Shown here: positions 2 through 20,501 of the stretch, piece after piece
Numbering within the stretch: position 1 is the first letter of the stretch
Layout of the letters: each line of letters starts with the position of its first letter
Assembly (NCBI GenBank): GCA_963717145.1
Contig: OY970325.1
Location: 576,001-640,000 of the forward strand
Length of the DNA: 64,000 nt
Direction: 5' to 3'
DNA from: an uncultured Armatimonadetes bacterium
GTDB taxonomy: Bacteria > Armatimonadota > UBA5829 > DTJY01
Made by a program: the position numbers and the translations under genes
Notes under the pieces: model-generated
Seen by the model: the letters and a program-made list of their open reading frames with translations, nothing else
What the model was told of the DNA's origin: nothing
The model's database searches: none

Positions 2-214
2 TCAGTATTCTGGGGTGGGGGAGTAGATACGCAGCAGACGCTCCCGTTCGGCACGCCCGATGAGGTCCGCGACGAGGTCCGCGAGCGCATCGAGGCGTTC
101 AGTCCCGGCGGCGGATTCGTCTTCAACGCGATTCACAACATCCAGGCCCGCACTCCGGTCGAGAATGTGCTCGCCATGTATGAAACGCTACGAGAGTTTG
201 GAGAATACCGATGA
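2..214 (+). CDS. 3' end of uroporphyrinogen decarboxylase (URO-D/MtaA/CmuA)-family protein, partial at window edge
   Basis: Manual translation of frame 2: SVFWGGGVDTQQTLPFGTPDEVRDEVRERIEAFSPGGGFVFNAIHNIQARTPVENVLAMYETLREFGEYR*, the typical URO-D-like C-terminus. The stop overlaps the next ATG (ATGA). It resembles the paralog at 19399-20487. Confidence 0.85.
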   Translation, partial: SVFWGGGVDTQQTLPFGTPDEVRDEVRERIEAFSPGGGFVFNAIHNIQARTPVENVLAMYETLREFGEYR

Positions 215-1212
215 AGAAGCTGATAGTCCCACTGATCCTGCTGGCCGCCGTGATGACCGCGACGACAATCGCTAAACGCAGCGGCGAGGGTCAACGCGTT
301 GGCAGTGGCCCGTCCGCGGCGGCTCATACCGATCAGCTTTACGTCGAGGTCTCCGCGCTCGGCAACCTCGACTACTTCTACGACCACAAGTTGGGGATGG
401 AACTCGCGGCAAGAGCGCTCGGCGTGGAGACGAAGTACGTAGGCCCGGCGGAGTACGACATACCCGCGATGATCACCGCATTCGAGCAGGCGCTCGCGAT
501 GAAGGGTCTCAAGGGCATCGTCGTCGTCGGATTCGAGCCCGCGCTCGTGCCGATCATCAACAAGGCGGTCGAGTCCGGCATCCCGGTCGTTACGGTGGAT
601 GCCGACCTGCCCGATTCGAAGCGCGTCGCGTTCGTCGGCACCGGCAACTACCAGGCGGGCGTCGAGGGCGGGACGAAGCTCGCGGAGTTGATCGGCGGCA
701 AGGGCAAGGTCGCGCTCATGACGAAGGTCGGGCAGTCGAACCTCGAGGAGCGGATCAGCGGCTACAAGGACGCGCTGTCGAAGTTCCCGGATATCAGCCT
801 CGTGCAGATCGTCGATACGCAGTCGGATGCGGTGATCGCGGCCCAGGTCGCCACCGCCGTCCTGCGGAAGAACCCCGATCTCGCCGGCATCGGATGCGTC
901 GAGGCGGCGGGCGGGACGGGAGCGGCGACTGCGGTCAAGGAATCGGGTCTCGCGGGCAAGGTGAAGATCGTCTCGATGGATCGCGGCAATGAGGTCCTCG
1001 AACTGATCGGCCAGGGTGTCATCAGCGCGTCGATCGCCCAGCGGACGGCACTGATGCCGTTCTACGCTGTAGAGATTCTCTTCAACCTTGCGAACCAAAA
1101 CGTCCCGATCACTGAGGACAACAAGAAGGCGCAGGTATCGACCGCGCCCTCGTCGATCGACACCGGCGTGATCATTGTCGACAAGTCGAACTACAAGTAC
1201 TTTCTGAGGTAA
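211..1212 (+). CDS. Sugar ABC transporter substrate-binding protein (RbsB/Peripla_BP_4 type)
   Basis: Signal peptide MKKLIVPLILLAAV; motifs INKAVESGIPVVTVDAD, FVGTGNYQAG, ERISGY, IDTGV; upstream of ATPase and permease. Confidence 0.92.
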   Translation: MKKLIVPLILLAAVMTATTIAKRSGEGQRVGSGPSAAAHTDQLYVEVSALGNLDYFYDHKLGMELAARALGVETKYVGPAEYDIPAMITAFEQALAMKGLKGIVVVGFEPALVPIINKAVESGIPVVTVDADLPDSKRVAFVGTGNYQAGVEGGTKLAELIGGKGKVALMTKVGQSNLEERISGYKDALSKFPDISLVQIVDTQSDAVIAAQVATAVLRKNPDLAGIGCVEAAGGTGAATAVKESGLAGKVKIVSMDRGNEVLELIGQGVISASIAQRTALMPFYAVEILFNLANQNVPITEDNKKAQVSTAPSSIDTGVIIVDKSNYKYFLR

Positions 1213-1251
1213 TATGGAGTGCGGAAGCGGCGTCTGCGTAGCTTCCGCTTT

Positions 1252-1338
1252 GAACGACCGTTGGGGATGGAGTTGGACTCCATCCCCCATGACTCAGTCC
1301 CGGGGGATGGAGTCCAACTCCATCCCCAACGGTCGTTC
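1252..1338. repeat. Palindromic doublet element, family A (GTTGGGGAnGGAGTTGGACTCCnTCCCC arms)
   Basis: gaacgaccgttggggatggagttggactccatccccc + 13-nt loop + exact reverse complement. Each arm is itself a hairpin. Relatives at 31902 and 32427. Confidence 0.9.
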
Positions 1339-1358
1339 CTTCGGTTACCGCACTCCGT

Positions 1359-2882
1359 ATGGTGAGCAATATGGCTCTGGTTCTGGAAGCAAGAGAGATC
1401 GTCAAGACATTCCCGGGGGTACGGGCGCTCGATAAGGTGTCGTTCGACCTCCGAAAGGGCGAGGTCCACGCGCTCGTCGGCGAGAACGGCGCGGGGAAGA
1501 GCACCCTCATGCACGTCCTCGGCGGCGTCTACCAGCCGGATTCCGGACGCGTCCTCCTCGACGGCCACGAGGTATCGTTCGCCGATCCCCACAGCGCATC
1601 GATCCACGGGATCAGCGTCGTCTTCCAGGAGTTGAGCCTCTCCGACAACCTCAGCATCGCCGAGAACATCTTCGCCAACCGCCAGCCGACCCGTGGCGCG
1701 GGCCTGATCGACTGGAGCGAGCTTCACGCGCGAACCCGTGAGGTCCTCGGCCTCTTCGATTGGGACGCGGACCCGTCCACTCCGCTGGGCGAGCTATCCG
1801 CGCCGAAGAAACAGGTCGTCGAGATCCTGAAGGCGCTCTCCCGCGATCCGAGCGTCCTGATCCTCGACGAGCCGACATCATCCCTGACCGCGCACGAGAC
1901 CGAGCTGCTCTTCCGAAACATCCGGCGGCTCAAGGAAAGCGGGCTCTCGGTCATCTACATTTCGCACCATCTCTCCGAGGTCTTCCAGCTTGCCGACCGG
2001 GTGACGGTCCTGCGCGATGGGAGGCTGGTCGAGACCTGCGACATCGGCGATGTGACGGAAGATGATCTCGTCCGCAAGATGGTCGGCCGCGAGCTGACCG
2101 ACATGTACGGCCGGCGAACCACCCCGGTCGGCGACGAGCGATTCCGGGTGACCATGAGTCCCGTAGGTCCCATCAGTCCCATCGGTCCTATCGGTCCCAT
2201 TCCGGACCTTTCTGTGAAGGCAGGCGAGATCGTCGGGATCGCGGGACTGGCGGGCGCGGGCCGGACCGAACTCGCGCGGGCGATCATCGGGTGCGACGGT
2301 GTCTATGACGGACAGATATTCCTCGACGGGAAGCAGATCACGATCCGCAGCCCGGAGGACGCGGTCAGGCATCGGATCGCATACCTCAGTGAGGACCGCA
2401 AGGCCGACGGCCTCTTCCTCGACATGGCGATCCGGGAGAACTGCGCCGCCCCGCGCCTGCGAGAGTTCGCCGGACGATTCGGGTTCATGGACGACAGGGC
2501 GATCACTCAGCGTGCGGAGAACTACCGCCGGGAGTTCGGCATCGCGACGCCCGACTCATGGCAGACGGTCGGGCTGCTCTCAGGCGGCAACCAGCAGAAG
2601 GTGCTCCTGGCGATGTGGATCGGCATTCGGCCGCTCGTCCTGATCGCCGACGAGCCGACGCGCGGAGTCGATGTCGGCGCGCGCAGCGAGATATACCGCC
2701 TCCTGCGCGATCTGGCGGCGGACGGCGTGGCGATCATCCTGATCTCCTCCGACCTGATCGAGGTCTTGGGCCTGAGTGACCGGGTGCTCGTCATGCGCAC
2801 CGGGAGCATCGTCGCCGAGTTCCCGAGCGAAGAGGCGACCGAGGAGAAGATCATCGCGTGCGCATCGGGACTGACGGCGTAA
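1359..2882 (+). CDS. Sugar ABC transporter ATP-binding protein (RbsA/MglA type, two NBDs)
   Basis: GENGAGKST, ILDEPT, ISHHL, LSGGNQQKV, DEPTRGVDVGA. Confidence 0.95.
   Translation: MVSNMALVLEAREIVKTFPGVRALDKVSFDLRKGEVHALVGENGAGKSTLMHVLGGVYQPDSGRVLLDGHEVSFADPHSASIHGISVVFQELSLSDNLSIAENIFANRQPTRGAGLIDWSELHARTREVLGLFDWDADPSTPLGELSAPKKQVVEILKALSRDPSVLILDEPTSSLTAHETELLFRNIRRLKESGLSVIYISHHLSEVFQLADRVTVLRDGRLVETCDIGDVTEDDLVRKMVGRELTDMYGRRTTPVGDERFRVTMSPVGPISPIGPIGPIPDLSVKAGEIVGIAGLAGAGRTELARAIIGCDGVYDGQIFLDGKQITIRSPEDAVRHRIAYLSEDRKADGLFLDMAIRENCAAPRLREFAGRFGFMDDRAITQRAENYRREFGIATPDSWQTVGLLSGGNQQKVLLAMWIGIRPLVLIADEPTRGVDVGARSEIYRLLRDLAADGVAIILISSDLIEVLGLSDRVLVMRTGSIVAEFPSEEATEEKIIACASGLTA
2158..2202 (+). 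repeat. In-frame 5 x 9-bp tandem repeat inside the ABC ATPase
   Basis: gtcccgtag gtcccatca gtcccatcg gtcctatcg gtcccattc, encoding SPVGPISPIGPIGPIP. Confidence 0.85.
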
Positions 2883-3028
2883 ATTCGAAATTCGAAGTTC
2901 GAAGCACGAAACAAAGTGCAAATCGGGAAAAGGGCAATTCCGAAAACCTTGCGGCTGCGGGTTGTTTGCTTTTTGGATTTTGGGTCATTCGGATCTGTTT
3001 CGAATTTCGAGCTTCGAATTTCGTGCTT
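2881..3028. repeat. Inverted heptamer microsatellite element
   Basis: Left AAATTCG AAATTCG AAGTTCG AAGCACG AAACA; right TGTTT CGAATTT CGAGCTT CGAATTT CGTGCTT; about 80-bp core between them. Confidence 0.85.
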
Positions 3029-3045
3029 GACTCTGAGGTAACTGC

Positions 3046-4026
3046 ATGGCTGAGAGAATGAAGAGCAACCCGATACTGGCGCGAATCCTCCGGATCACGG
3101 AATACCGGGAGTTCATGATCGTCTACATCATCGTCCTCGGCACGATTGCCATCGCCTATGCGGTTCCCGGCTTCATGGACAGGCGGAACACCTCGGCCAT
3201 TCTCCTCGCGCTCGCCGACCAGAGCATCATCGCGATCGGAATGACGCTGCTCCTCGTCTCCGGCGGCTTCGACATGTCGGTTGGCTCGACGATGGCGCTC
3301 GCGGGGGTCACGACCGCGATCTGGCTCACGCTCGGTCTGCCGGTCGGACTCGCCATCGCGCTCGGGCTCGCGGTCGGCGTGCTTATCGGCCTGATCAACG
3401 GGATGGTCGTCGCGCACGTCGGCATCAACCCGTTCATCACGACTCTGGGCATGATGAGCCTCGCGCGCGGGATGCTGATGGTCGTCTCGAACGGGCGGAA
3501 CATCTCCGGCCTGCCCGCGTCGTTCACGGCGATAGGGCAGGGGAGCATCCTTGGCGTCCAGTATCCGATCATCATCTCGATCGTGCTCGTATTCGCCGGC
3601 GACTTCCTCCTCCGCCGAAGCCGGTTCTTCCGCCAGAACTACTACATCGGCGCGAACGAGAAGGCCGCGCTCCTCTCCGGCATCAACGTCAAGAAGATGA
3701 AGGTCTTCAACTACGCGCTGACCGGCTTCCTGGCGGCGCTCGCCGGGATCATCATCACCGCGCGGCTCGGCTCGGCGTCGACCTCGGCGGGGAGGGGCCT
3801 CGAACTGCGCGTGATCTCGGCGGTCATCATCGGCGGCGCGAGCCTCAAGGGCGGAGTCGGCACGATCGCGGGCTCGTTCCTCGGGGCGCTCCTCATGAGC
3901 ATCATCGTCAGCTCGATCAACCTGCTCGGCGTGGAGTTGAACTGGATCGACTTCGTCCTCGGCGCGACGCTGCTCCTGGCGGTGATGGCGGATACCTTCA
4001 GCCAGAAGAAGACCACGAAGGAATAG
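3046..4026 (+). CDS. Sugar ABC transporter permease (RbsC/BPD_transp_2)
   Basis: GGFDMSVGS, INPFITTLG, YYIGANEKAALLSGINV, ELRVISAVIIGGASLKGGVG. Confidence 0.95.
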   Translation: MAERMKSNPILARILRITEYREFMIVYIIVLGTIAIAYAVPGFMDRRNTSAILLALADQSIIAIGMTLLLVSGGFDMSVGSTMALAGVTTAIWLTLGLPVGLAIALGLAVGVLIGLINGMVVAHVGINPFITTLGMMSLARGMLMVVSNGRNISGLPASFTAIGQGSILGVQYPIIISIVLVFAGDFLLRRSRFFRQNYYIGANEKAALLSGINVKKMKVFNYALTGFLAALAGIIITARLGSASTSAGRGLELRVISAVIIGGASLKGGVGTIAGSFLGALLMSIIVSSINLLGVELNWIDFVLGATLLLAVMADTFSQKKTTKE

Positions 4027-6468
4027 GTGAGCGACTTGAGGCGCATGCTCTGGATACTCCTGCTGATCGGCGTCACGAGTGCCTGCGGCGCGTCGGTCAG
4101 TCGGCGGACGATACCGCTCGACGGCAGGTGGCAGATCGCTCAGGGCCCTCACTCGGAGATGCCACAGGCGTTTGGCGGCACGATCCCCGTTCCGGGACTG
4201 GTCGACATGGCGAAACCCGCCTTCACGGAGGTCGGCATTCCCAGTCCTCAGCGCGAGGCGTTCTGGTACAGGCGCACGTTCTACCTCGCCGGGCCGGAAT
4301 ACGCGGTCGCCCTTTTGAAGGTCAACAAGGCGAGGTTCGGCACGAAGGTGTGGCTCAACGGGACCGAGGTCGGCGAGCATCTCGGATGCTTCACGCCAGG
4401 CTACTTCGATGTGAGCAAGCTCGTCCGCTACGGCGCCCGCAACACGGTCGTCATCCGCATCGGCGCGTGCCGGGAATCGCTGCCTCCATCCGTCCCCGGC
4501 GGCATGGACTACGAGAAGACGATCTGGACGCCGGGCATCTACGACTCGGTCTCCCTGACGCTCTCGGGGGATCCGCGCATTGTCTCGCTGCAGGTTGCCC
4601 CGCATATCGGCGATGGGACGATCACGGCACAGGTCGTCGTCAAGCATCATGGAAAGGAACCGGGTGAAGGTACGCTGCGGCTCAGCGTCCGGGAATGGAA
4701 GAGCGGACGCACGGTAGCGAAATCGGTCAGCTGGGGGTTCGGGATCGATGGGTCGGGTGAACGGACTATCACCGACACCCTTCACATCGACAAGCCGCAC
4801 CTCTGGTCGCCGGAGGACCCGTTCCTCTACGTTCTTCGATGCGAAACCGATGGCGATGCGGCCGAGACCCGGTTCGGAATGCGGGAATTCCGATACGACG
4901 CGAAGACCGGGCGTGCGGTGCTTAACGGCCGTCCCTACTACCTCAGAGGGACCAACTTCTGCATGTTTCGCTTCTTCGAGGACCCGCTCAGGGGTGCCCT
5001 TCCCTGGAACCGCACATGGGCCCGGAAGCTTCTCACTCTGCCGAAGGACGCGCTCCACTGGAACTCCGCCCGCGTCTGCATCGCGCCGTTCCCCGAGTTC
5101 TGGTACGACCTCGCCGATGAGATCGGCTGGCTGCTCCAGGACGAGTATCCGATCTGGGGCTTCAACGACGCCTGGAGCCAGGACGAACTGATCGCCGAGT
5201 TCAGGGAATGGCTGACCGAGCGATGGAATCACCCCTCGATTGTCGTCTGGGATGCATGCAACGAGACGCTCAATCCGCGCACCGGCGCACTCATCGAGGC
5301 CGTTCGCGGCATGGACCTCTCCGACCGTCCGTGGGATGACGGCTACAGTCAGCGCCATCGCCCCGACGATCCCATGGAGAGCCACCCCTATACCAGCATG
5401 TCATCGGGTGACGCCAGGCTCGGCAGCGTGCTGGACAAGACGTGGCCGGGGATCGGGAAGCCGTTCGTCATCAACGAGTATGATGCGTTCTGGATGGACC
5501 GAGATGGAGGCGCTACGCCCTGGTTCGGGAAGTGGTATGAGAATACTCTCGGGCCTGACGCGACCCTCGATCAGAAGCGCGAACTCCGCGCCCGCAATGC
5601 GGCGGCGGTCACCGAATACTGGCGCGCGAGACGTGATGCCGCCGGCGTGCACTGGTTCTGCTACCTGGCTTATTCCAAGCCGGGGATGGTGACCAGCGAC
5701 AACTTCGCGGATATGCCGAACCTCGTGCTCGACCCCTACTTCGTTGACTACATGCGCGATGCCTTCTCGCCGCTCGCGGTGACGATCGACGACTGCGAGG
5801 TTCGAGTCGCCCCAGGCACATCGAGCAACTGCCGGATAGTCGTGACAAACGACCTCTATGAGTCGCGGACCGGAGTCGTTGAGCTGCAACTGAACGAGGT
5901 GACGCAGCGATCGGCGAAGTTCAAGGTCCCCGCGCTCGGCCAATCCGTGATCATGCTGCCCTTGAGGTTTCCGGCAACTCCCGGGAAGTACCGCCTGACC
6001 GTCGAGCTGATCCCCGACAAGGGCGAGCGCGTCCGAAGCCGGCGCAACGTCGAGGTCATGACCCCTGAGGAGACTAAGAGGTATGTAAGCCTCTCCGACC
6101 GCTGCCGGGTAACCACCTCGTCCACCTACCGCAAGTACCCGGCGAGGTTCGCGGTCGACAGGCATGGCGGTACGCGGTGGTCATCTCGGTTCAGCGATCC
6201 TCAATGGATCTCGGTTGACCTCGGCAAGGTGCAGCGGATCGGATGCGTAGTCCTGGACTGGGAACGCGCATGCGGCAAGTCGTATCGGATTCAGGTCTCA
6301 TCCGACAGCCGCAAGTGGACCGATGTCTACTCCACCAATGATGGCAAGGGCGGTCGCGAAGAGGTCAGGTTCACGCCCATACCCGCCCGGTACGTCCGCA
6401 TGTACGGCACCGCCCGGGGGACCGAGTTCGGCTACTCGCTCTGGAGTTTCCAGGTCTTCGAGGACTAG
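4027..6468 (+). CDS. Secreted glycoside hydrolase family 2-like protein with C-terminal F5/8 type C (CBM32-like) domain
   Basis: Signal peptide; LWSPEDPFLY, RFGMREF, LNGRPYYLRG, NHPSIVVWDACNE (acid/base), FVINEY; C-terminal TRWSSRFSDPQWISVDLG...ARYVRM. Confidence 0.85.
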   Translation: MSDLRRMLWILLLIGVTSACGASVSRRTIPLDGRWQIAQGPHSEMPQAFGGTIPVPGLVDMAKPAFTEVGIPSPQREAFWYRRTFYLAGPEYAVALLKVNKARFGTKVWLNGTEVGEHLGCFTPGYFDVSKLVRYGARNTVVIRIGACRESLPPSVPGGMDYEKTIWTPGIYDSVSLTLSGDPRIVSLQVAPHIGDGTITAQVVVKHHGKEPGEGTLRLSVREWKSGRTVAKSVSWGFGIDGSGERTITDTLHIDKPHLWSPEDPFLYVLRCETDGDAAETRFGMREFRYDAKTGRAVLNGRPYYLRGTNFCMFRFFEDPLRGALPWNRTWARKLLTLPKDALHWNSARVCIAPFPEFWYDLADEIGWLLQDEYPIWGFNDAWSQDELIAEFREWLTERWNHPSIVVWDACNETLNPRTGALIEAVRGMDLSDRPWDDGYSQRHRPDDPMESHPYTSMSSGDARLGSVLDKTWPGIGKPFVINEYDAFWMDRDGGATPWFGKWYENTLGPDATLDQKRELRARNAAAVTEYWRARRDAAGVHWFCYLAYSKPGMVTSDNFADMPNLVLDPYFVDYMRDAFSPLAVTIDDCEVRVAPGTSSNCRIVVTNDLYESRTGVVELQLNEVTQRSAKFKVPALGQSVIMLPLRFPATPGKYRLTVELIPDKGERVRSRRNVEVMTPEETKRYVSLSDRCRVTTSSTYRKYPARFAVDRHGGTRWSSRFSDPQWISVDLGKVQRIGCVVLDWERACGKSYRIQVSSDSRKWTDVYSTNDGKGGREEVRFTPIPARYVRMYGTARGTEFGYSLWSFQVFED

Positions 6469-6469
6469 A

Positions 6470-8533
6470 ATGACGCTGATTCCATATGAGCTTCCACCCA
6501 ATATCGCCGCTCTGCGGGAGATCGCGCTCAACAAGAAGAGTGGATGGGGCTGCCCGGCGGTCCTCCCGGCTGAGGCTCAGGCGTGGCTCGAACACACTCC
6601 CGACGAGGACTGGCTGGTCTGGCGCGCGCGTCGGACCGCCGCGAAACTGTCGAGCATGCCGATCGACATCCTCCAGGGCGAGCGGATCGTCGGTCGCCCG
6701 CTGCTCTGGGATGCGACTGAGGCGGAGAACGAGGAGCTTTCCGCGGCATGGAAGGTACTGGAATCGGTGCCTCCGTTCCCCGGCGGCGACACCGGGCATT
6801 TCAACCCCGACTTCGCGAAGGTGTTCAACGTCGGCATCGGTGGGATCATCGAGGAGGTCCGCTCGAGGCGTGACGCGTCGGGCGACGAGAAGCGCGCGTT
6901 CTACGACGCATGCGAGATCGCGATGAAGGGGTTCTCGGGATACATCCTCCGGGTCGCCAATGCGTGCGACGGCGAACTTGCGGACATCTGCCGAAAAGTC
7001 GCCTGCGAGCCGCCTTCGACGTTCCATGAGGCCATCCAGTTGATGTTCCTGCTGATCGTCGCGCTCTGGTTCGGAGAGGATCACGTCCTCTGCAACCCGG
7101 GCCGGATCGACCGGACGCTCGGCCCGTTCTACGAGGCCGACCTCGCCGCTGGGCGGATCACCCGCGAGGAGGCGCTCGACCTGATCTGCTGCCTCTACAT
7201 CCAAATGAACATGATCTGCTTCCCTGGAGCGGCGATCGCGGTTACGGTCGGCGGCCGGGATGCGGAAGGGCGGGATATGACGAACGACCTCACCTACCAC
7301 TGCCTGGAGGCCCGGCTCGCGACGCATCTCGTCTACCCCACAGTCGGCCTCGCGTGGCATGAGGGGACTCCCGTCGAACTGACCGACTTCGCATGCCGCA
7401 TGATCGCCACCGGCGTCGGCGATCCGGCGTTCTTCAACGACGAGTTGATCGCGCAGGGCCTCCAGGACCTCGGCGTCTCGGAGGCCGACTCGCGCGAATA
7501 CATGAACTCCACGTGCGTCGAGATCAAGCCCGTCGGCGCATCGAACATCTGGGTGACTCATCCCTACTTCAACTGCCCGGATGCGGTGCTTCAGGCGATG
7601 GACGGCGATCCGGCGGATTTCGAGCAGTTCAGCTCAGTGGTGAGGGAAAAGCTCAGCGCCCAGGTCCGAGAGGCCGCGGAGAACTCCGACCGCATCTGGA
7701 ACGAACGATACACGCGCGGCGGCTTCCCGCTCGCCAGTTGCGTCATCAACGACTGCCTCGAGCGGGGCGTCGACTTCGACCGGGGAGGCGCGCGGTACAA
7801 CTGGGTCGAAAACTCGTTCGTCGGGCTCGCGAACCTGGTCGATGGCATGATGGCCGTGAAGAAGCTGGTCTTCGATTCGAGGAGGCTCTCGCTCCCGGAG
7901 TTCCGCGACATCCTCAGGACCGACTTCGAGGGCCACGAGACGCTCCGTCAGGAGATCCTGAACACGATCCCTCACTACGGGACGGACAACCCGGAGGTCG
8001 ATGCGCTCGCGATCGAGTGGGCGCACTTCATTGAGGAGACATCCCGCTCCAATATCGTCGGAGGCAGTCCATACGTGCCCGGCTTCTTCTGCTGGATCAT
8101 GCACGGCGAGTTCGGCGCTCGGACCGGCGCGACCCCCGACGGTCGGAAAGCCGGCGCCGCGCTCGCGGATGGGGCAGGCGCGGCTCAGGGCCGGGAGACC
8201 GCAGGCCCGACGGCATCGATACTCTCGACGACCAAGTGGAGCCATCGGAGCGCGATCGGCGGGCTGGTGCACAACCTGAAGCTTGCCGGAAGTTCCCTGC
8301 GCACCGCGTCCGATCTGCAGGCGCTCCGTACCCTGATCGAGACTTACCTGCGCATGGGCGGCTTCGAGATACAGGTGAACGTCGTCGATGCCGATGTCCT
8401 TCGCGATGCCCAGGCACATCCGGAGTTACACGCCGACCTGCTCGTGAGGGTTGCGGGCTACTCCGACTACTTCACCCACCTCGGTCCTGTCCTACAGGAA
8501 GAGGTCATCGCCCGCACGGAACACGGGTGCTAG
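6470..8533 (+). CDS. Glycyl radical enzyme (PFL superfamily), non-PFL type, substrate unknown
   Basis: Glycyl loop LLVRVAGYSDYF, Cys loop MNSTCVEI, GATPDGRKAG, TFHEAIQ, PGRIDR. ATG at 6470, 1 nt after the GH2 stop, is more plausible than the ORF-track start at 6323. Confidence 0.9.
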   Translation: MTLIPYELPPNIAALREIALNKKSGWGCPAVLPAEAQAWLEHTPDEDWLVWRARRTAAKLSSMPIDILQGERIVGRPLLWDATEAENEELSAAWKVLESVPPFPGGDTGHFNPDFAKVFNVGIGGIIEEVRSRRDASGDEKRAFYDACEIAMKGFSGYILRVANACDGELADICRKVACEPPSTFHEAIQLMFLLIVALWFGEDHVLCNPGRIDRTLGPFYEADLAAGRITREEALDLICCLYIQMNMICFPGAAIAVTVGGRDAEGRDMTNDLTYHCLEARLATHLVYPTVGLAWHEGTPVELTDFACRMIATGVGDPAFFNDELIAQGLQDLGVSEADSREYMNSTCVEIKPVGASNIWVTHPYFNCPDAVLQAMDGDPADFEQFSSVVREKLSAQVREAAENSDRIWNERYTRGGFPLASCVINDCLERGVDFDRGGARYNWVENSFVGLANLVDGMMAVKKLVFDSRRLSLPEFRDILRTDFEGHETLRQEILNTIPHYGTDNPEVDALAIEWAHFIEETSRSNIVGGSPYVPGFFCWIMHGEFGARTGATPDGRKAGAALADGAGAAQGRETAGPTASILSTTKWSHRSAIGGLVHNLKLAGSSLRTASDLQALRTLIETYLRMGGFEIQVNVVDADVLRDAQAHPELHADLLVRVAGYSDYFTHLGPVLQEEVIARTEHGC

Positions 8534-8542
8534 GAGAACATC

Positions 8543-11500
8543 ATGAGAATCGCTTTCCTGCTTCTGATGCTTGCCGCTTCAGCCGCGCAGTGTGCGCTGG
8601 TTGCGCCGTCCATTTCCCTTTCGGGCGAGTGGCGCTTCGACCTCGATCCGAAGAACGTCGGCATCACCGAGCGCTGGTTCGCGAAGGACCTCTCCGACAC
8701 CGTGAAGCTCCCCGGCTCGACGGACACGAACCGGAAGGGCGTCCTGAACACGCGCCCGCCGGACCTCTCACATCCCGCGCGCGTCCATGAGTACACCGGC
8801 GTCGCCTGGTACCAGCGCGACATAACCATAACTGAGGACTGGCCGCTGAACGGCAGGGACAGGGTCGAACTCCTCCTGGAGCGGTGCCACTGGGAGACGC
8901 GGGTCTGGATCGATGACAAGCCGTGCGGGATGCGGGACAGTCTCTGTGTGCCTCACGTCTACGATCTCGGCGCCCTGAAGCCGGGCAAGCACCGACTGAC
9001 CATTCGAGTCGACAACAGCATTAAGTACAACGTCGGCGGCTGGGCACATTCGATCACCGAGGAGACGCAGACCAACTGGAACGGCATAGTCGGCCGGATC
9101 GAGCTTCGAGCAAGGCCGTCTTACCGGATGGACAACGTTCAGGTCTATCCGAACACCGCCGAGAAGACCGTCCGGGTCAGGGCCTTCGTCGCAGGTGAGC
9201 CCCCGATCCGCAACGGCAAGGTCGTGCCGTGTGTGCTCAGCTACCAGATCTACGAACCAGGCGGGAAGGAATCCGGGCTCTGGGATGTGGTCGACGACAG
9301 GATCACCGATCTTACCGGCAAGAAGCCCATCGAGTTCACGGTGCCGATGCCGAAGGGCATCCGCTCCTGGGATGAGTTCTCGCCGAATCTGTACACAGTG
9401 GCGGTTAACATTCATCCTGTCGACGCAACGATGCTCGGGAGCGACGTTCTTCGAACGACCTTCGGCATGCGGGACTTGCGCGTGCAGGATAAGCGCCTCG
9501 TGATGAACGGCCGGAAGATTTTCCTGCGGGGCACCCTCGAATGCTGCATCTTCCCTCTGACCGGCTACCCGCCGACGGATGTGGACTCGTGGCTGCGAAT
9601 CCTGAGGATCTGCAAGTCCTACGGCCTGAACCACATGCGCTTCCATTCATGGTGCCCGCCCGAAGCCGCGTTCGAGGCCGCCGACCGCGAGGGAGTCCTC
9701 CTCCAGGTCGAACTGCCCCAGTGGGTCGGGAACGTCGGACAGGAACCGCCGAGGGACGAGTTCATTCGCGAGGAGATGCTGCGCATTCTCGATACATACG
9801 GTAACCATCCATCCTTCGGGATGCTCTGCATGGGCAACGAACTAGCGGGCGATGCCTCATTCCTTCAGAAGCTCGTCGTCGAGGGCAAGGCATTCGATCC
9901 GCGCCACCTCTACACTCCGTCAACCGCCTGGTCGCTCGGCGCGAACGACGACTATGATGTTGGTCTCCCTCGCGGACTCCACGGACCGACGACAGACGCC
10001 GACTTCGCCGATCAGGACGCCGCGAGCAAGGTCCCCGTCATCTCCCACGAGATCGGGCAGTGGAGCGTCTTCCCCAACATGGCGGAGATTCCGAAGTACA
10101 CCGGCATCACCCGCGCGCGCAACTTCGAGTTGATCCGCGAAGGACTCGCGGAACACGGGCTGCTCGATCAGGCGGCGGATTTCACCCGAGCGTCCGGCAA
10201 GCTCTCCGCCGAATTGTACAAGGAAGAGATCGAGGTGCTCCTCCGCACGCCGGGCCATGGTGGATTCCAGCTCCTCGACCTGCACGATTTCCCCGGCCAG
10301 GGAACCGCCACCGTCGGCATGCTCGACGCCTTCTGGGACTCGAAGGGGCTGATCACGCCTGGGGAGTGGCGCAGGTTCTGCGGGCCCGACGGTTCCGCTC
10401 CTTCGAATGCCGAAGAGGACGTACACGACGGATGAGACCTTCATCGCCGATGCGCAGATTGCGCATTTCGGGCAAAAGGACATCGACGCGGTTCCGGTCT
10501 GGAGCATCCGCGACGAGAAGGGGACGCTGGTGGAATCCGGTTCGCTGCCTGAGAAGGCGCTCCCGACCGGCGACCTCCACGACCTCGGCGCGATCGAGGC
10601 GTCCCTCGCGGATGTGAAGGCTCCCTGCAAGCTGACAGTGACCCTCTCGCTCAGGGGGACCGACATCTCGAATAGTTGGAGCATCTGGGTCTATCCTGCG
10701 AAGGTCGATCTCGACCTTCCCGAGGACGTTCTCGTCACCCGGAACGTGAGCGAGGCGAAGTCCGCGCTCGAAGCCGGGAACACGGTGCTCCTCCTCGCCT
10801 CCAGGGCGAACCTCGTCGATCCCGGCACGGGCAGCCCGACGACCGTCTTCTGGGATCCCGTGCTCTTCGCTCAGCAGAACAACAACGGCATGGGCATCCT
10901 CTGCGACCCGAAGCATCCCGCGCTTGAGGGCTTCCCGACGGCGTTCCATGCGGATTGGCAGTGGTGGGAGCTGCTCGACAGGTCACTGAACATGGTGCTC
11001 GACGGCACGCCGAAGGACTTCCGCCCGGTCGTCCAGGTGATCGATAACTTCATCAAGAACCGCAGGATGGCCAACCTCATCGAGGCGCGAGTGGGGGAGG
11101 GGCGGCTGATCGTCTGCTCGATGAACATCACCGGCCTCGATGAGAGCCGTCTCGCTCCCCGACAGATGCTCGGGAGTATCCTCCGCTACATGGGCTCTCC
11201 AGCATTCCAGCCAAAGCAGACGCTGACGATCGCCGAGATGGACACCTTCCTCGGCCAGAGGAAGTCCTCCGTCCTGAAATCGCTCGGGGCTCAGGTGGTC
11301 TATGCGGACAGCGAAGACGTGTCGAACCCGGCGACAAATGCCATCGACGACGATCCCGATACATGTTGGCATACCCAGTGGCAGGGCACTGCGCCGCCGT
11401 TCCCCCATGAGATTCAGATCGACCTCGGGAAGCCGGTCAATCTGAAGGGGTTCAAGTACCTCCCCAGGCAGGATATGACGAACGGTTGGTTCACCGACTA

Positions 11501-11690
11501 TGAGTTCTACCTCAGCGATGATGGCAAGGAGTGGGGCGCGCCGGTCGCGAAAGGGACGTTCCCCTCTGACAACAGCGAGAAGGTCGTCACGTTGGACAAG
11601 CCCGCCCGCGGACGGTTCATCCGCCTGGTCGCCCTCATGGGTTACAATGGCAATCCCTGGGCCGGCATCGCGGAGTTGGATATGCTGTAG
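8543..11690 (+). pseudogene. GH2-like beta-glycosidase with C-terminal F5/8 domain, split by a 1-nt frameshift near 10385 (real lesion or sequencing error)
   Basis: ORF 8543-10435 (signal peptide, LSGEWRF, MRFHSWCPP, NHPSFGMLCMGNEL) and ORF 10407-11690 join into ...WRRFCGPTVPLLRMPKRTY... if one base is removed from tgcgggcccgacg. Confidence 0.8.
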
Positions 11691-11744
11691 TGGGGAGTAT
11701 TCCGTGTGCGAAATGGGTAGCCTTCATGTCGAGGAGGAATGCAC

Positions 11745-12029
11745 ATGCCACAACTACTCGTACGACACAAGATCGCGGACTACGCGAAGTGGAAGGTCGC
11801 TTTCGATGCCCACGCCCCGGTGCAGAAGTCGATTGGGATCACCGGCGGCCGTCTCTTCCACAGTGCAGATGATGCTTCGGAGATCGTGATTCTCTTCGAG
11901 ATCCAGGATGTCGAGCGCGCACGGAAGTTTACGCAGTCCCAGGAACTGAAGGAAACGATGGAGCGTGCCGGGGTGGTCGACATGCCCGATATATACTTCC
12001 TCGAGGAGATCGGCGAGGTCAAGGTCTGA
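11745..12029 (+). CDS. Small dimeric alpha+beta barrel (ABM/'cyclase'-like) protein
   Basis: MPQLLVRHKIADYAKWKVAFD...LKETMERAGVVDMP; SD GAGGAGG 7 nt before ATG 11745. Confidence 0.7.
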   Translation: MPQLLVRHKIADYAKWKVAFDAHAPVQKSIGITGGRLFHSADDASEIVILFEIQDVERARKFTQSQELKETMERAGVVDMPDIYFLEEIGEVKV

Positions 12030-12082: not shown

Positions 12083-12124
12083 GACCCGACACGGGCGCGC
12101 CGTATCACGGAGCGCCCGGTTTGG

Positions 12125-12192
12125 CACTCCAGCATTCCAACACTCCGGTACTCCTTTCGAGTAGGAGTATGAGTAGGAGTATGAGTATGAGT
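12125..12192. repeat. Octamer/hexamer microsatellite in the 5' UTR
   Basis: cactccag cattccaa cactccgg tactcc followed by gagtag gagtat gagtag gagtat gagtat gagt; supplies the AGGAG SD and the ATG. Confidence 0.7.
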
Positions 12193-13971
12193 GAGATTCG
12201 ATCCATTCTGGCGACGGACTGCGGAAGCACCACGACCAAGGCGATCCTCATCGAGAAGCAGGGCGACGAGTACCGCCTCGTGGTCCGGGGCGAAGCGCCC
12301 ACGACCGTCGAAGCGCCGTTCGATGACGTGACCGTCGGCGTGCTCAACGCCACACGCGAGGTCGAGGAACTTGCGGGCCGTCCGATCCTCAAGCCCGACG
12401 GTACGGGCGTCAAGATCCCGCGTGAGGGCGATGTCGGCGTCGATCTGTATCTCTCGACCTCCAGCGCGGGCGGCGGACTGCAGATGACGGTTGCCGGCGT
12501 CGTCAAGACCATGAGCGCCGAGAGCGCCGAACGAGCCGCACTCGGCGCCGGCGCGATCATCATCGACGTGATCGCGGTCGACGATGGCCGCAAGGAATAC
12601 GAGAAGGTCCAGCGAATCCGAGAGCTTCGGCCCGACATGATCCTGATGTCCGGCGGGACGGACGGCGGCACGGTCACGCACCTCGTCGAGATCGGCGAGA
12701 TGCTCCTCTCGGCGGATCCGCGCCCAAGGCTCGGCATCGGCGTCAAGCTCCCGGTGATCTACGCCGGCAACAAGGAAGCGGCGGCGGCGGTCGACGAGAT
12801 CATTAAGGACATGGTTGACCTCAAGGTCGTCGACAACCTGCGACCGACCCTCGACCGCGAGAATCTCTCGCCGGCGCGCGAGGCGATCCACGAGCTGTTC
12901 CTTCAGCACGTCATGCAGCAGGCGCCGGGCTACGGCAAGCTGATGACCTGGACCAGCGCCGGCATCATGTCCACGCCGAACGCGGTCGGCAAGATCATCG
13001 AGACGATCGCCGACCAGGAGAAGATCAACGTGCTGGCGGTCGATATCGGCGGCGCGACGACCGACGTCTTCTCGGTCTTCGGCGGGATGTTCACCCGCAC
13101 CGTCAGCGCGAACCTGGGGATGAGCTACTCGATCTGCAACGTTCTGGCCGAGGCGAAGATCGGCAACATCATGCGCTGGATGCCGTTCGAGGCCGACGAG
13201 GGCTACGTCCGCAACGAACTGCGCAACAAGATGATCCGCCCGACGACGATCCCGCAGACGTTGAAGGACCTCTACATCGAGCAGGCGGTTGCCCGCGAGG
13301 CGCTGCGGCTCGCGTTCGAGCACCACAAGTCGCTGGCCCGCGAGCTGAAGGGCGTACAGCAGGACAGGCTCATCGGCGAAGCCATCAGCCAGGAAGCGAG
13401 CGGAAAGACACTCGTTCACCTGATGGACCTCGACATGATCGTCGGGAGCGGCGGCGTGCTCAGCCATGCGCCGATGCGGGAGCAGAGCGCGCTCATGATG
13501 CTCGATGCGTATCAGCCCGAGGGCGTGACGATGCTGGCGGTCGACTCGATCTTCATGATGCCGCAGCTCGGCGTTCTCTCGGAGCACATGCCCGAGGCCG
13601 CGCTCCAGGTGTTCCGCCGCGACTGCCTCATCAAGCTCGGAACGGCGATCTCGCCCGTCGGACTGTGCAGGGAGGGCCTCCCAGGATGCACTCTTCGGAT
13701 CGATGGGGAGGAGATCGAGATCCCCGGCGGAACAATCCGCGTCTTCCCGCTCGGCCCGGGTGAGAAGAAGGAGATCGAGGTGACGCCCTACAAGGCCTGC
13801 GACCTCGGTCAGGGCCGCGGTCGGACGCGGAAGATGGAGGTCGAGGGCGGGGTCGTCGGGCTGATGATCGATACCCGTGGCCGCCCACTCCAGCTTCCAT
13901 CTGATCCGAAGGACCGGGTGAGGAAGCTCAGGGAATGGTTCGCGGCCTTCGGCCTTCGGATGCCTGACTAG
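12187..13971 (+). CDS. GlmL/MutL-like (glutamate mutase L family) ASKHA-fold ATPase
   Basis: ILATDCGSTTTK, EAPTTVE, STSSAGGGL, AERAALGAGA, LMSGGTDGG, VDIGGATTDVFS, RTVSANLGM; start chosen from the SD AGGAG. Confidence 0.85.
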   Translation: MSEIRSILATDCGSTTTKAILIEKQGDEYRLVVRGEAPTTVEAPFDDVTVGVLNATREVEELAGRPILKPDGTGVKIPREGDVGVDLYLSTSSAGGGLQMTVAGVVKTMSAESAERAALGAGAIIIDVIAVDDGRKEYEKVQRIRELRPDMILMSGGTDGGTVTHLVEIGEMLLSADPRPRLGIGVKLPVIYAGNKEAAAAVDEIIKDMVDLKVVDNLRPTLDRENLSPAREAIHELFLQHVMQQAPGYGKLMTWTSAGIMSTPNAVGKIIETIADQEKINVLAVDIGGATTDVFSVFGGMFTRTVSANLGMSYSICNVLAEAKIGNIMRWMPFEADEGYVRNELRNKMIRPTTIPQTLKDLYIEQAVAREALRLAFEHHKSLARELKGVQQDRLIGEAISQEASGKTLVHLMDLDMIVGSGGVLSHAPMREQSALMMLDAYQPEGVTMLAVDSIFMMPQLGVLSEHMPEAALQVFRRDCLIKLGTAISPVGLCREGLPGCTLRIDGEEIEIPGGTIRVFPLGPGEKKEIEVTPYKACDLGQGRGRTRKMEVEGGVVGLMIDTRGRPLQLPSDPKDRVRKLREWFAAFGLRMPD

Positions 13972-14899: not shown

Positions 14900-16018
14900 A
14901 TGGGAACAGCATACACACCGGGGCTCAAAGTGAGCCCGAGAACAACGATACGAAAGACGAGGCGACTTCCCCTCAAGGGCCAGGTCGTCGTCAACGTCGG
15001 CGACAGGGTCGTCCCGGACGCCGTCGTCGCGCGGACCGAGCTGCCGGGGATCATGCAGACGCTCAGGGTCGCGGAGTTCCTCGGCCTCGAGCCCGGCGAT
15101 GTTGCCAAGGTCCTGAGGATCAAAGAGGGCGACAAGGTCGAGACGAGCGATGTGATCGCCGAGACGCGAGCGTTCTTCGGCCTCATGCGTAACGAGTTGA
15201 AGTGCCCGATTTCGGGGACGGTCGAGCTGATCTCCCCGGTCTCCGGCCACGTCGGCATCCGACAGAAGCCGCTGCCGGTCGAGGTGACCGCCTACATCCC
15301 CGGTCAGGTCGTGGACACAATCCCCGAGGAAGGCGTCGTCATCGAGACGATCGGCGCATTCATCCAGGGCATCTTCGGGGTCGGCGGCGAGAAGACCGGT
15401 GAGATCAAGGTGATCGTCGAGCGGCCCGATCAGACGGTGGATGCCGATCAGATCACCGAGGAGATGGCCGGCAAGATCATCGTCACCGGCGCGAATATCA
15501 CCGGCGCGGGACTGAAGAAGGCGTCGAGCATTGGGGTCGCGGGCGTCGTGACCGGCGGGATCATCGACCTCGATCTGATCGACTTCCTCGGCTACGACAT
15601 CGGCGTGGCGATCACCGGCCAGGAGAACATCCCGACCACGCTCATCGTCACCGAGGGATTCGGCGTGATGACGATGGCCAACCGCACATTCGACCTCCTG
15701 AAGTTGCTTGAGGGACGCCAGGCATCGATCAACGGTGCGACCCAGATCCGCGCGGGGGTCATCCGGCCCGAGATCATCGTCCCGGCGACCTCCGACGCCG
15801 AGAACGCGCCCGCCGACGCCGAGCAGGTGCTCGATATCGGCACGAGGCTGCGCATCATCCGCGAGCCCTACTTCGGTATCCTCGGGCACGTGACCGCGCT
15901 CCCGCCGGAACTCGTCGTCATCGAGTCCGGCGCGAAGGTCCGCACCCTGGAAGCCCAACTGGATGACGGCCGGACTGTAACGGTCCCAAGGGCGAATGTG
16001 GAGATCATCCAGGAGTAG
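14900..16018 (+). CDS. Conserved hypothetical protein with barrel-sandwich-hybrid-like N-terminus and KOW/SH3-like C-terminus; probable partner of the GlmL-like protein
   Basis: MGTAYTPGLKV..RRLPLKGQVVVNVGDRV, CPISGTVE, IQGIFGVGGE, LIVTEGFG, RIIREPYFG, VTVPRANVE; host-like codon usage. Confidence 0.7.
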   Translation: MGTAYTPGLKVSPRTTIRKTRRLPLKGQVVVNVGDRVVPDAVVARTELPGIMQTLRVAEFLGLEPGDVAKVLRIKEGDKVETSDVIAETRAFFGLMRNELKCPISGTVELISPVSGHVGIRQKPLPVEVTAYIPGQVVDTIPEEGVVIETIGAFIQGIFGVGGEKTGEIKVIVERPDQTVDADQITEEMAGKIIVTGANITGAGLKKASSIGVAGVVTGGIIDLDLIDFLGYDIGVAITGQENIPTTLIVTEGFGVMTMANRTFDLLKLLEGRQASINGATQIRAGVIRPEIIVPATSDAENAPADAEQVLDIGTRLRIIREPYFGILGHVTALPPELVVIESGAKVRTLEAQLDDGRTVTVPRANVEIIQE

Positions 16019-19398: not shown

Positions 19399-20487
19399 TC
19401 AGTATCGCCCGAATTCCCTGTACGCATCCAGAAGCGCGAGCGCGTTCTCCACGGGCGTATCGGCCTGGATGTTGTGCGCGGTGCACAGAATGTATCCGCC
19501 ACCGGGCCCAAATGCCTCGACCCTCTCCTTGACTTCCCGGCGAATCTCTTCCTTCGTCCCGAAAGGCAACGTCTGCTGGATCGACATCCCGCCGTGGAAT
19601 GCCAACTTGTCGCCGAACTGAGCCTTGAGCGTGTGCGGATCCATATCGAACGCTTCCGGCTGGACCGACTGCAGGACGTCCAATCCCCGCTCGATCATCA
19701 GCGGGATGATCGGCCTGACGGAGCCGCACGTATGGTGCATCACGCGGATGCCATGCGATTTCGCCAGGGAGACATAGTCGGCAAACCCCTGCCCGAGGAA
19801 CTGAGTCCACATCGCGGGCGAGACGAGCGGTCCGTTCTGCGAGCCGAAGTCGTCGCCCATGAGCAGGATGTCGATCGTACCCCTCGCGGCCTCGAATATC
19901 CTCTCAGCGTAGGAGCAGTAGAAGCTGCGGACGCGGCGGAAGATCGTCTCGGCGATCTCCGGCTCCATGCACATATCGAGGAGAATCTGTTCGACTCCTC
20001 TGAGATACATCGCGGGCTTGAGCTGGGCCAGTCGGTTCATCCTGTCGCCCTGGAAGACCGCGACCCGTGCCTTCCGGCGCACTTCCTCACATTGCGCCTC
20101 GATGACCGAATAGTCGAACCAGTCGGGCGAGGGCCAATGGTCATAGGCTTCGATCTCCTCGACCGTCGTCATAGCGCTGAGTGGTGACTTCGCGACCTCC
20201 TCGTATGTCTCCGCGCCGTCCTGGAGTTGGAGGCTGACCATCGTGCGGCGGACTCCCCAGATATCCTCGTCCGTGCCATCCTCGAAGGCCCGGAGCGGAG
20301 GTCCGATGTACGCCGGGCCTTCGATATAGCGCAGGTCCACATCCCTCACGTCCAGGAGTGCCTCCATGTCAGTATTCAGCGCGGAGAGGATCTTCCGACT
20401 GAACCCCTTCGACATCCACAGGTCGATCGGAACTCTATCAGGTTCCTCGAAATCGAGTGCCTTGAATACTCGTTCTCTGGAATCCAC
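19399..20487 (-). CDS. URO-D/MtaA/CmuA-family protein
   Basis: DSRERVFKALDFEEPDRVPID, DIWGV, LRGVEQILLD, MGDDFGSQNGPLVSP, HHTCGS, FHGGMSIQQTLPFGT, GGGYILCTAHNIQ; GTG start with SD. Confidence 0.88.
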   Translation of the reverse strand: MDSRERVFKALDFEEPDRVPIDLWMSKGFSRKILSALNTDMEALLDVRDVDLRYIEGPAYIGPPLRAFEDGTDEDIWGVRRTMVSLQLQDGAETYEEVAKSPLSAMTTVEEIEAYDHWPSPDWFDYSVIEAQCEEVRRKARVAVFQGDRMNRLAQLKPAMYLRGVEQILLDMCMEPEIAETIFRRVRSFYCSYAERIFEAARGTIDILLMGDDFGSQNGPLVSPAMWTQFLGQGFADYVSLAKSHGIRVMHHTCGSVRPIIPLMIERGLDVLQSVQPEAFDMDPHTLKAQFGDKLAFHGGMSIQQTLPFGTKEEIRREVKERVEAFGPGGGYILCTAHNIQADTPVENALALLDAYREFGRY

Positions 20488-20501
20488 AGGTGCTTCCTCT
20501 C

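Follow-up and report, generated by a model that had tools for sequence, protein, structure and literature searches.

Methyl ethers on sugars can block fermentation. An oxygen-dependent P450 route for sugar methyl ethers is described in the accessible part of an earlier report (PMC6292453). Demethylases of the O-, S-, and halogen types are among the members of the UroD superfamily, and the O-demethylases named in the available portion of the corresponding source act on phenolic ethers (PMC10418091). Bacteroides thetaiotaomicron BT0340-0343 are named, in the accessible part of PMC8941943, only as Mta-type B12 proteins. Among glycyl radical enzymes (GREs), eliminases and isomerases are recognized by Cys-X-Glu (CXE) and formate lyases by a pair of neighboring Cys residues, according to the available part of a GRE review (PMC13450708). 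Here we analyze a 64,000-nucleotide stretch from an uncultured Armatimonadetes bacterium (positions 576001-640000 of the single-contig 5.37-Mb genome G000, contig C1; hereafter the window), in which a URO-D-superfamily gene is followed by a sugar ABC importer, two glycoside hydrolase family 2 enzymes (GH2a and GH2b), and a compact GRE (GRE1). We report that the conserved unit of this locus is the URO-D-like gene together with the ABC importer, and that the GRE and the GH2 enzymes are lineage-variable accessories. Our preferred reading, to which we assign a probability of about 0.45, is a modular cluster of one Armatimonadota family that would import a methylated sugar and demethylate it in a B12-dependent manner, with radical C-O elimination as an option; the locus would be the downstream arm of this cluster and its sugar catabolism anaerobic. 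The features of the locus are the following, in window positions unless another locus is named.

2-214, + strand: 3' end of a URO-D-superfamily gene with an MtaA-like fold (PF01208; 82% to an intact 418-amino acid orthologue).
211-1212, + strand: periplasmic monosaccharide-binding protein of a CUT2-type ABC importer (PF13407).
1252-1338, no strand: REP-like palindromic repeat in the gap between binding protein and ATPase (43-nucleotide arms, 95% complementary; 59 places in the genome).
1359-2882, + strand: two-domain sugar ABC ATPase (PF00005 twice; AraG/RbsA-like, under the cut-offs).
2881-3028, no strand: dispersed inverted-repeat element, TTCGAA-rich, in the gap between ATPase and permease (28-nucleotide arms; 18 places in the genome).
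3046-4026, + strand: sugar ABC permease (PF02653).
4027-6468, + strand: GH2a, a divergent GH2 enzyme with a C-terminal F5/8 module (Pfam GH2 domains).
6470-8533, + strand: GRE1, a compact glycyl radical enzyme of 687 amino acids (PF02901 and PF01228).
8543-11690, + strand: GH2b, a BT4151-like GH2 enzyme with an F5/8 module, in two frames (NF049890, 659 and 233 bits).
11739-12029, + strand: small ABM/cyclase-like protein (Atlas matches 0.97-0.98; PF03992 found in 15-53% of the members).
L001:15621-18834, - strand, immediately upstream of the window: GRE2, a second glycyl radical enzyme, behind a Zn-dependent dehydrogenase.

All genes from the URO-D-like tail to the small open reading frame (ORF) lie on the + strand within 2-12029. 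The URO-D-like and binding protein genes share a 4-nucleotide (nt) ATGA overlap at 211-214, and the gaps are 0 nt between permease and GH2a, 1 nt between GH2a and GRE1, and 9 nt between GRE1 and GH2b. The original prediction had described co-oriented genes with very short gaps and a GRE placed between two GH2 genes, and the coordinates bear this out. Inside the ABC genes the spacing is wider, 146 nt at 1213-1358 and 163 nt at 2883-3045, and the dispersed palindromic repeats occupy both stretches. Scans for promoter-like sites (0 vs 1.8 in shuffled sequences) and terminator-like sites (5 vs 5.2) were uninformative on co-transcription.

Close relatives of the encoded proteins carry the label Armatimonadota. 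Conservation was assessed in 53 genomes of the class, with binding proteins of at least 76% identity taken as orthologues. Seven genomes encode one (G000, G001, G006, G007, G009, G031, and G032), the eighth match among class genomes being a 41% paralogue. In all seven, which span three families, a URO-D orthologue is adjacent to the binding protein gene or within approximately 5 kb of it; in G032 it sits behind the permease, and the linkage thus survives rearrangement. Three more divergent binding proteins have other URO-D paralogues no more than 6 kb away. In an indirect check on a larger set, for which contigs of at least 20 kb were paired by equal size using the best 120 of each list, 11 of 17 contigs with a close binding protein matched a URO-D-bearing contig in size and 2 of 17 a GRE1-bearing one.

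The remaining genes vary. GRE1 adjoins the core in three of the seven genomes (G000, G006, and G009), GRE2 with its dehydrogenase in G000 and G001, and neither GRE stands beside it in G007, G031, or G032, the G007 assembly comprising 750 contigs. Within the family, one or the other adjoins the core in four of five core-bearing genomes, and neither was found in the other six. Orthologues of GH2a are present in 2 of the 53 class genomes (2/7 core-bearing) and of GH2b in 4, all of which carry the core. The gene order of G000 is repeated in G009 and, minus GH2a, in G006, and relatives have the unrelated genes addAB and proS inserted within the cluster.

The tight gaps, the order shared with G009 and G006, and the restriction of GH2b to core-bearing genomes would each be expected of one linear pathway, in which a methylated or deoxy sugar released by the GH2 enzymes enters through the ABC system and is demethylated by the URO-D-like protein to a product that GRE1 cleaves, the full set having been present in the family ancestor and later lost in part. 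An internally deleted GRE1 remnant in G031 (L110:15327-15584; residues 408-482 followed by 674-686) agrees with such losses; it lies approximately 3 kb from a dehydrogenase-GRE2 pair, and the core is elsewhere in that genome. The distribution of GRE1 argues the other way. We collected 80 GRE loci from GTDB, kept 67 at 47% identity or more, and left out 13 at 39-43%; only 37 of the 67 extend for at least 3 kb in both directions. Neither the importer nor GH2a or GH2b has an orthologue in the sequence of 66 of these 67 loci, and the exception, L002, shares the arrangement of G009 and is not independent of it. Many GRE1 copies stand among housekeeping genes, and the recurrent neighbors are SDR genes (10 loci), NAD epimerase-like proteins (8), a partner GRE (5), and an activase (3). 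Of 301 genomes of the phylum, 23 carry GRE1 and 8 the binding protein, with an overlap of 4, so that 19 of 23 GRE1-bearing genomes are without a binding protein orthologue; conversely, four of the seven importer-bearing class genomes have no intact GRE1.

Genes of the URO-D family do occur in the flanks of 19 of the 67 GRE loci, compared with 7.8 expected (95% range 3-13, from the density in this genome), as a linear pathway would have it. All 19 are paralogues (<40%), and after merging of related loci the count is approximately 14 of 62, near the 97.5% bound of 13. We consider the linear pathway unlikely. The single fixed pathway of the original prediction is accordingly not borne out: the neighborhood comparison of GRE homologues that it had proposed shows orthologues of the importer and the GH2 enzymes in only 1 of 67 loci, and GRE orthologues occur in unrelated contexts, the outcome that it had named as speaking against itself.

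By its components, a class I binding protein, a two-domain ATPase, and a BPD_transp_2 permease, the importer belongs to the CUT2 type. The nearest solved relatives of the binding protein are 3g1w, 6sw4 (arabinose-binding), and 2h3h, from which a ligand call gives no more than "monosaccharide-type," and the protein falls under every NCBIfam cut-off. Identity as a rhizopine-binding protein was rejected (model score 97/420 bits). Close binding proteins carry the automatic source label "ribose transport." In G165 and G197 (L197:10464-12187 and L198:3965-5689), a 71% binding protein directly follows a SAM-dependent methyltransferase gene, with a PhyH dioxygenase gene adjacent and a URO-D paralogue approximately 5 kb away.

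The URO-D-like gene starts approximately 1060 nt before the window and only its last approximately 70 codons lie inside, and the fold and motif work was done on the intact 418-amino acid orthologue of G006. The model of this protein (pLDDT 95) has MtaA (4ay8/4ay7) as its best fold match, followed by true URO-Ds, all at a TM score of approximately 0.55. It has the UroD-type barrel with His-x-Cys that characterizes MtaA and CmuA. His310, Cys312, and His397 do not vary among 80 sequences; His397 aligns with the last Cys of MtaA, its third zinc ligand, so Cys is absent at the third ligand position. Identity as HemE was rejected: the substrate-motif stretch after the first strand, which we take to be RQAGR in HemE, reads PLDLGASAVTGM, and RQALG follows approximately 15 residues later on a helix.

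We compared the surroundings of relatives in 80 metagenome loci (51-92% identity, most 70-77%; 41 loci of at least 8 kb). A corrinoid protein gene is nearby in 25, RACo in 21, DUF1638 in 16, and a binding protein in 5; a GRE occurs in only 1 of 80 (GRE2, the same as in G001). In a quick tree, the importer-linked relatives stand apart from the corrinoid-linked ones, in another group and, away from it, on a single branch. The genome itself encodes one free corrinoid protein (C1:2612579-2613190), next to RACo, DUF1638, and a homocysteine methyltransferase. Methyltransferase II-type genes are present as two NF005719 matches at 1.88 and 3.22 Mb, and an acetyl-CoA synthase cluster (L206, C1:3208001-3228000) encodes AcsB, C, D, E, AcsV, a MetF-like protein, and Fhs. 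The components of a corrinoid O-demethylase, namely methyltransferase I, corrinoid protein, reductive activator, and methyltransferase II, are thus all encoded, in trans, and with the acetyl-CoA synthase genes they would give a methyl group a destination in the cell. Based on the fold, the zinc-site residues, the corrinoid neighbors of one clade, the 7/7 linkage, and these partners, a role of the URO-D-like protein as a corrinoid methyltransferase I tied to the importer is probable, in line with the original suggestion of possible demethylation.

Several observations weigh against the modular demethylation cluster. The protein scores 41 bits against the MtaA/CmuA model TIGR01463, whose cut-off is 235. 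In its His-Cys-His site one Cys is replaced by His and one is kept, which is neither the S pattern nor a clear O pattern: the available part of PMC10418091 gives His-Cys-Cys for S-methyltransferases and carboxylate or non-ligand substitutions for O, with Cys ligands favoring soft S/Se substrates. The corrinoid-linked relatives form one clade, also accompanied by a second URO-D gene, so the 25 loci count as approximately one event, and most other relatives are without a corrinoid neighbor in the available flanking DNA. The genome contains 48 URO-D-family matches, and 51 of the 53 class genomes encode the corrinoid protein, almost always as a single copy; the partners in trans therefore do not point to this gene in particular. 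A URO-D orthologue occurs without the importer in four further genomes (4/11), the relatives are non-independent, and the core-bearing genomes of the family are the larger ones. Finally, no kinase or aldolase gene is present in the locus, and the URO-D-like gene is frameshifted in this assembly.

The same zinc site raises the possibility of an S-methylated substrate, for example 5-methylthioribose, with the core salvaging or fermenting a thio-sugar and the GH2 enzymes as bystanders. The invariant Cys, given the preference of such ligands for soft substrates, would suit this, as would the "ribose transport" labels and the methyltransferase gene that precedes the binding protein in G165 and G197; the third ligand is nevertheless His, not Cys, the neighbors are glycosidases, and no methionine-salvage genes were seen in the window or 20 kb upstream. 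We regard an S-methylated substrate as very unlikely. The excess of 48 paralogues over one corrinoid protein bears on a further alternative, a loose sugar island in which the URO-D-like protein would be a metal-dependent decarboxylase or isomerase, with the neighboring GRE and GH2 genes present because catabolic genes cluster. Consistent with it, an FNAIHN stretch aligns with FNLGHG of true URO-D, most URO-D relatives have unrelated neighbors, and addAB and proS lie inside the cluster in relatives. This is set against MtaA as the best fold match, the invariance of His-x-Cys, the placement of one clade in a corrinoid protein-RACo-DUF1638 cluster, and an importer link that survives rearrangement, and we judge the loose island to be quite unlikely. 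The ratio of paralogues also suggests that one corrinoid protein is a shared methyl-carrier hub for many URO-D-fold enzymes.

For the preferred modular cluster, we infer activities, substrate, co-transcription, and the assignment of the activase and the corrinoid protein from the genes, gaps, residues, folds, linkage counts, and partner genes, as follows. The ABC system would import a small methylated sugar or cyclitol, most likely an O-methyl compound, and the URO-D-superfamily protein would bind the heteroatom of the substrate at its His-Cys-His zinc site. The methyl group would be moved to the single free corrinoid protein of the genome, kept active by the adjacent RACo, and a methyltransferase II would pass it to tetrahydrofolate and the acetyl-CoA synthase pathway. 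As accessories, exported GH2 enzymes may release sugars, GH2b probably galactose-type residues, and GRE1 would be activated in trans by the one activase of the genome. Cys349 of GRE1 would abstract a hydrogen from a carbinol carbon that Glu351 deprotonates, and His110 would help to expel the neighboring OH or OR group, giving a deoxy-keto sugar. The GRE2-dehydrogenase pair may be a second option.

The GRE1 model (pLDDT 95.7) superimposes on glycerol dehydratase with a TM score of 0.93 at 27% identity, and identities to all solved GREs are 19-27%. An alignment of 91 GREs shows no variation at His110, Cys349, Glu351, or Gly663. The RVAGYS loop with Gly663, the Cys349 loop, and the PF02901 and PF01228 domains place the protein among PFL-like enzymes, and Cys349-Val-Glu351 with His110 is the signature of GRE 1,2-eliminases and isomerases. 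At the positions of glycerol dehydratase that we take to be Ser282, Tyr339, Asp447, and Tyr640 of the pocket, a sequence alignment, as opposed to model geometry, places Leu207, Ala253, Thr363, and Phe540 of GRE1. His110 aligns with His164 of glycerol dehydratase, which protonates the leaving group according to the available part of PMC13450708. The clade keeps a specific stretch of its own, FFCWxxH (FFCWIMH in GRE1), of which His545 aligns with the His in the TVSAH stretch of PflD.

Several assignments were rejected. Pyruvate formate-lyase does not fit the loop S-T-C-V-E, which has no adjacent Cys pair, or the TIGR01255 score (81/994 bits); CutC, HypD, HpsG, HpfG, HPAD, IAD, and PflD gave 224-295 bits against cut-offs of 1000-1150; and for glycerol/propanediol dehydratase the pocket residues are replaced and TIGR01774 gives 385/678 bits. 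A start of GRE1 at ATG 6323 would overlap GH2a, and orthologues begin at 6470. The parts of the GRE review available (PMC13450708) contain no class that fits the GRE1 clade. Because His110, Cys349-Val-Glu351, and Gly663 are kept, GRE1 is predicted from sequence and model to be of the eliminase/isomerase type and not a C-C lyase, and, with scores under every named-family cut-off, it appears as a member of no characterized family. The reading of GRE1 as an uncharacterized radical enzyme, often near sugar genes, holds, and the C-C cleavage that had been included among its possible reactions does not, the residues indicating C-O elimination or isomerization.

YbiW and PflD open 1,5-anhydrohexitol phosphates. 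GRE1 might itself remove an ether, by methanol elimination or by ring opening of an O-methyl or anhydro sugar, with the methyltransferase acting in parallel or at another position. The alignment of His545 with the PflD residue and the retention of the core with or without GRE1 would be compatible with this, and CXE and His chemistry can expel an alkoxy group according to the accessible part of PMC13450708. Structural identity to PflD and YbiW is nevertheless only 24-25%, PRK09983 scores 283/1109 bits, and the locus has no kinase or PTS gene; direct ether cleavage by GRE1 seems to us a long shot.

No radical-SAM activase is present in the locus, and GRE activases are generally thought to be partner-specific. 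Five GREs are encoded in the genome against a single activase above the TIGR02494 cut-off, whose gene (C1:1278779-1279627) stands next to another GRE gene. A search of G024 gave 1 activase and 14 GRE matches and one of G038 gave 3 and 21, these being matches, not copy numbers. Taken at its widest, our modular reading would describe an anaerobic route for methylated plant or algal sugars, in which a His-Cys-His O-demethylase would feed the acetyl-CoA pathway and one or two GREs would then deoxygenate the sugar, dozens of URO-D enzymes sharing one corrinoid protein and several GREs one activase. We hold this wider scheme to be possible and on balance doubtful.

Other GRE1 surroundings were recorded. 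In L013, L028, L029, L030, L031, L054, and L062 (labeled Planctomycetota/Lentisphaerae, and others), genes for an NAD epimerase-like dehydrogenase and an SDR come after GRE1, which often stands behind a partner GRE with a GGCTE motif; a fumarylacetoacetate-hydrolase-family gene is present as well in L013 and L028. These loci resemble a non-phosphorylative sugar-acid route and are a better lead to the GRE1 substrate. In the Chloroflexota loci L050, L055, L056, L057, and L070, GRE1 stands among a xylose-isomerase-like gene, URO-D-like genes, and GH42, and L055 has a corrinoid protein too. GH42 genes are near GRE1 in five loci, and GH42-like and GH2 genes are directly upstream of it in G020.

A divergent unit begins approximately 100 nt before the start of the URO-D-like gene and comprises the Zn-dependent dehydrogenase, GRE2, an MFS transporter, and a GH30 gene, beyond which lie a DegT aminotransferase, a HisD-like protein, and a GH123-like protein. 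GRE2 (688 amino acids) is 33% identical to GRE1 and has CIE and RVSGFS motifs and a different pocket. The dehydrogenase-GRE2 pair adjoins the URO-D-ABC core also in G001 (81%) and is located elsewhere in G031. The HisD-like dehydrogenase and DegT aminotransferase genes are at L001:7878-10442, and the aminotransferase (88%) also follows GRE2 in G001.

Both GH2 enzymes have the sugar-binding, Ig-like, and barrel domains of the family. Their acid/base and nucleophile Glu motifs are presumably CNE and INEY in GH2a and GNE and SHEIG in GH2b. GH2a has an N-terminal hydrophobic leader, as judged by eye, and only distant solved relatives. GH2b scores 659 and 233 bits over its two pieces against NF049890 (BT4151), below the 1500-bit cut-off, and is a candidate exo-beta-galactosidase. 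A reading of GH2b as two genes was rejected, a single open frame being present in G001, G007, and G009. The small ORF at 11739-12029 had no tblastn match in the 80 GRE loci or in 23 relatives' regions, and its ABM/cyclase-like product is probably outside the conserved cluster.

Compared with intact orthologues, the URO-D-like gene has one extra base near window position 3 and GH2b one near 10380. In a test against relatives' proteins, frame changes appeared in 6 of 44 rows, and in 5 of approximately 36 genes after 8 shadow-strand or duplicate rows had been removed by eye; the fhs and acetyl-CoA synthase (acsB) genes are also in pieces. Since several other genes are broken as well, assembly errors are a likelier cause of the two extra bases than real frameshifts. 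Among sequencing runs, two DNA runs with small shares and no RNA run were listed. Of two contigs from relatives, neither of the same strain, one lacks the extra base in the URO-D-like gene, and the other joins the end of the permease gene to the start of GRE1, GH2a being absent.

Downstream of the cluster, short 8-nt tandem repeats of the CACTCC/CATTCC type lie at window 12125-12154, in the gap after the small ORF. Well-formed genes at window 12121-13971 and 14900-16018 (- strand), encoding 616 and 372 amino acids, have no Pfam or NCBIfam match; the 616-amino acid product presumably resembles a glutamate-mutase-L-type ASKHA protein. A further URO-D-family paralogue at window 19399-20868 (- strand) shows the same His-x-Cys...His pattern (HHTCG, AHNIQ).

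The four-part arrangement is found at the family level and is not a widely conserved pathway, and its value lies in two testable enzyme leads. The URO-D-fold family is very widespread and 70-75% conserved (8000 of 8000 candidates scored), and the GRE1 clade comprises 830 proteins at E <= 1e-100. Because a ligand screen of the binding protein is feasible, the roles of both the URO-D-fold family and the GRE clade are testable. A literature search found no description of corrinoid sugar demethylation, of this gene combination, or of the GRE1 clade; most subscription papers were outside its reach, so absence is unproven. A term search of the available text of PMC10418091 gave no occurrence of "sugar," "glycoside," or "glycyl radical."

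In comparison with known systems, GRE1 shares its fold (TM 0.92-0.93), Gly loop, Cys-Val-Glu motif, and His110 with glycerol dehydratase (1r8w) and GRE 1,2-propanediol dehydratase (5i2g and 9rco), and differs from them in a structural identity of only 26-27%, a length approximately 100 residues shorter, another pocket, and the lack of an activase in the locus. With PflD/YbiW of anhydroglycolysis (8id0 and 8id7) it has in common the sugar context, the CXE motif, and the aligned His545; by contrast, identity is 24-25% and the locus provides for free sugar to be taken up by an ABC system and lacks PTS, kinase, and aldolase genes. GH2b matches NF049890, the model of the exo-beta-1,4-galactosidase BT4151, along most of its length, and 8u01 is the nearest solved structure to the G009 orthologue, but its summed score is approximately 890 of 1500 bits and it has an extra C-terminal F5/8 module. 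Type 1 mlp clusters (Kountz and Balskus, PMC10418091) likewise contain UroD-superfamily methyltransferase homologues, and a clade related to our protein is accompanied by genes for a corrinoid protein and RACo and by a further URO-D gene. As defined in the available part of that source, such clusters combine no fewer than two Mlps with a corrinoid protein and with Ram, co-oriented, with His-Cys-Cys sites for S/Se methyls, whereas here there is one gene with His-Cys-His and sugar neighbors. Finally, the fold, His-x-Cys, and the four component types (methyltransferase I, corrinoid protein, RACE, and methyltransferase II) are common to the OdmB/VdmB-type O-demethylases and MtaA and to this genome, in which, unlike in those systems, the components are scattered, the third ligand is His, and a monosaccharide importer is linked. 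The cluster is a variant of known system types, in an arrangement limited to one family.

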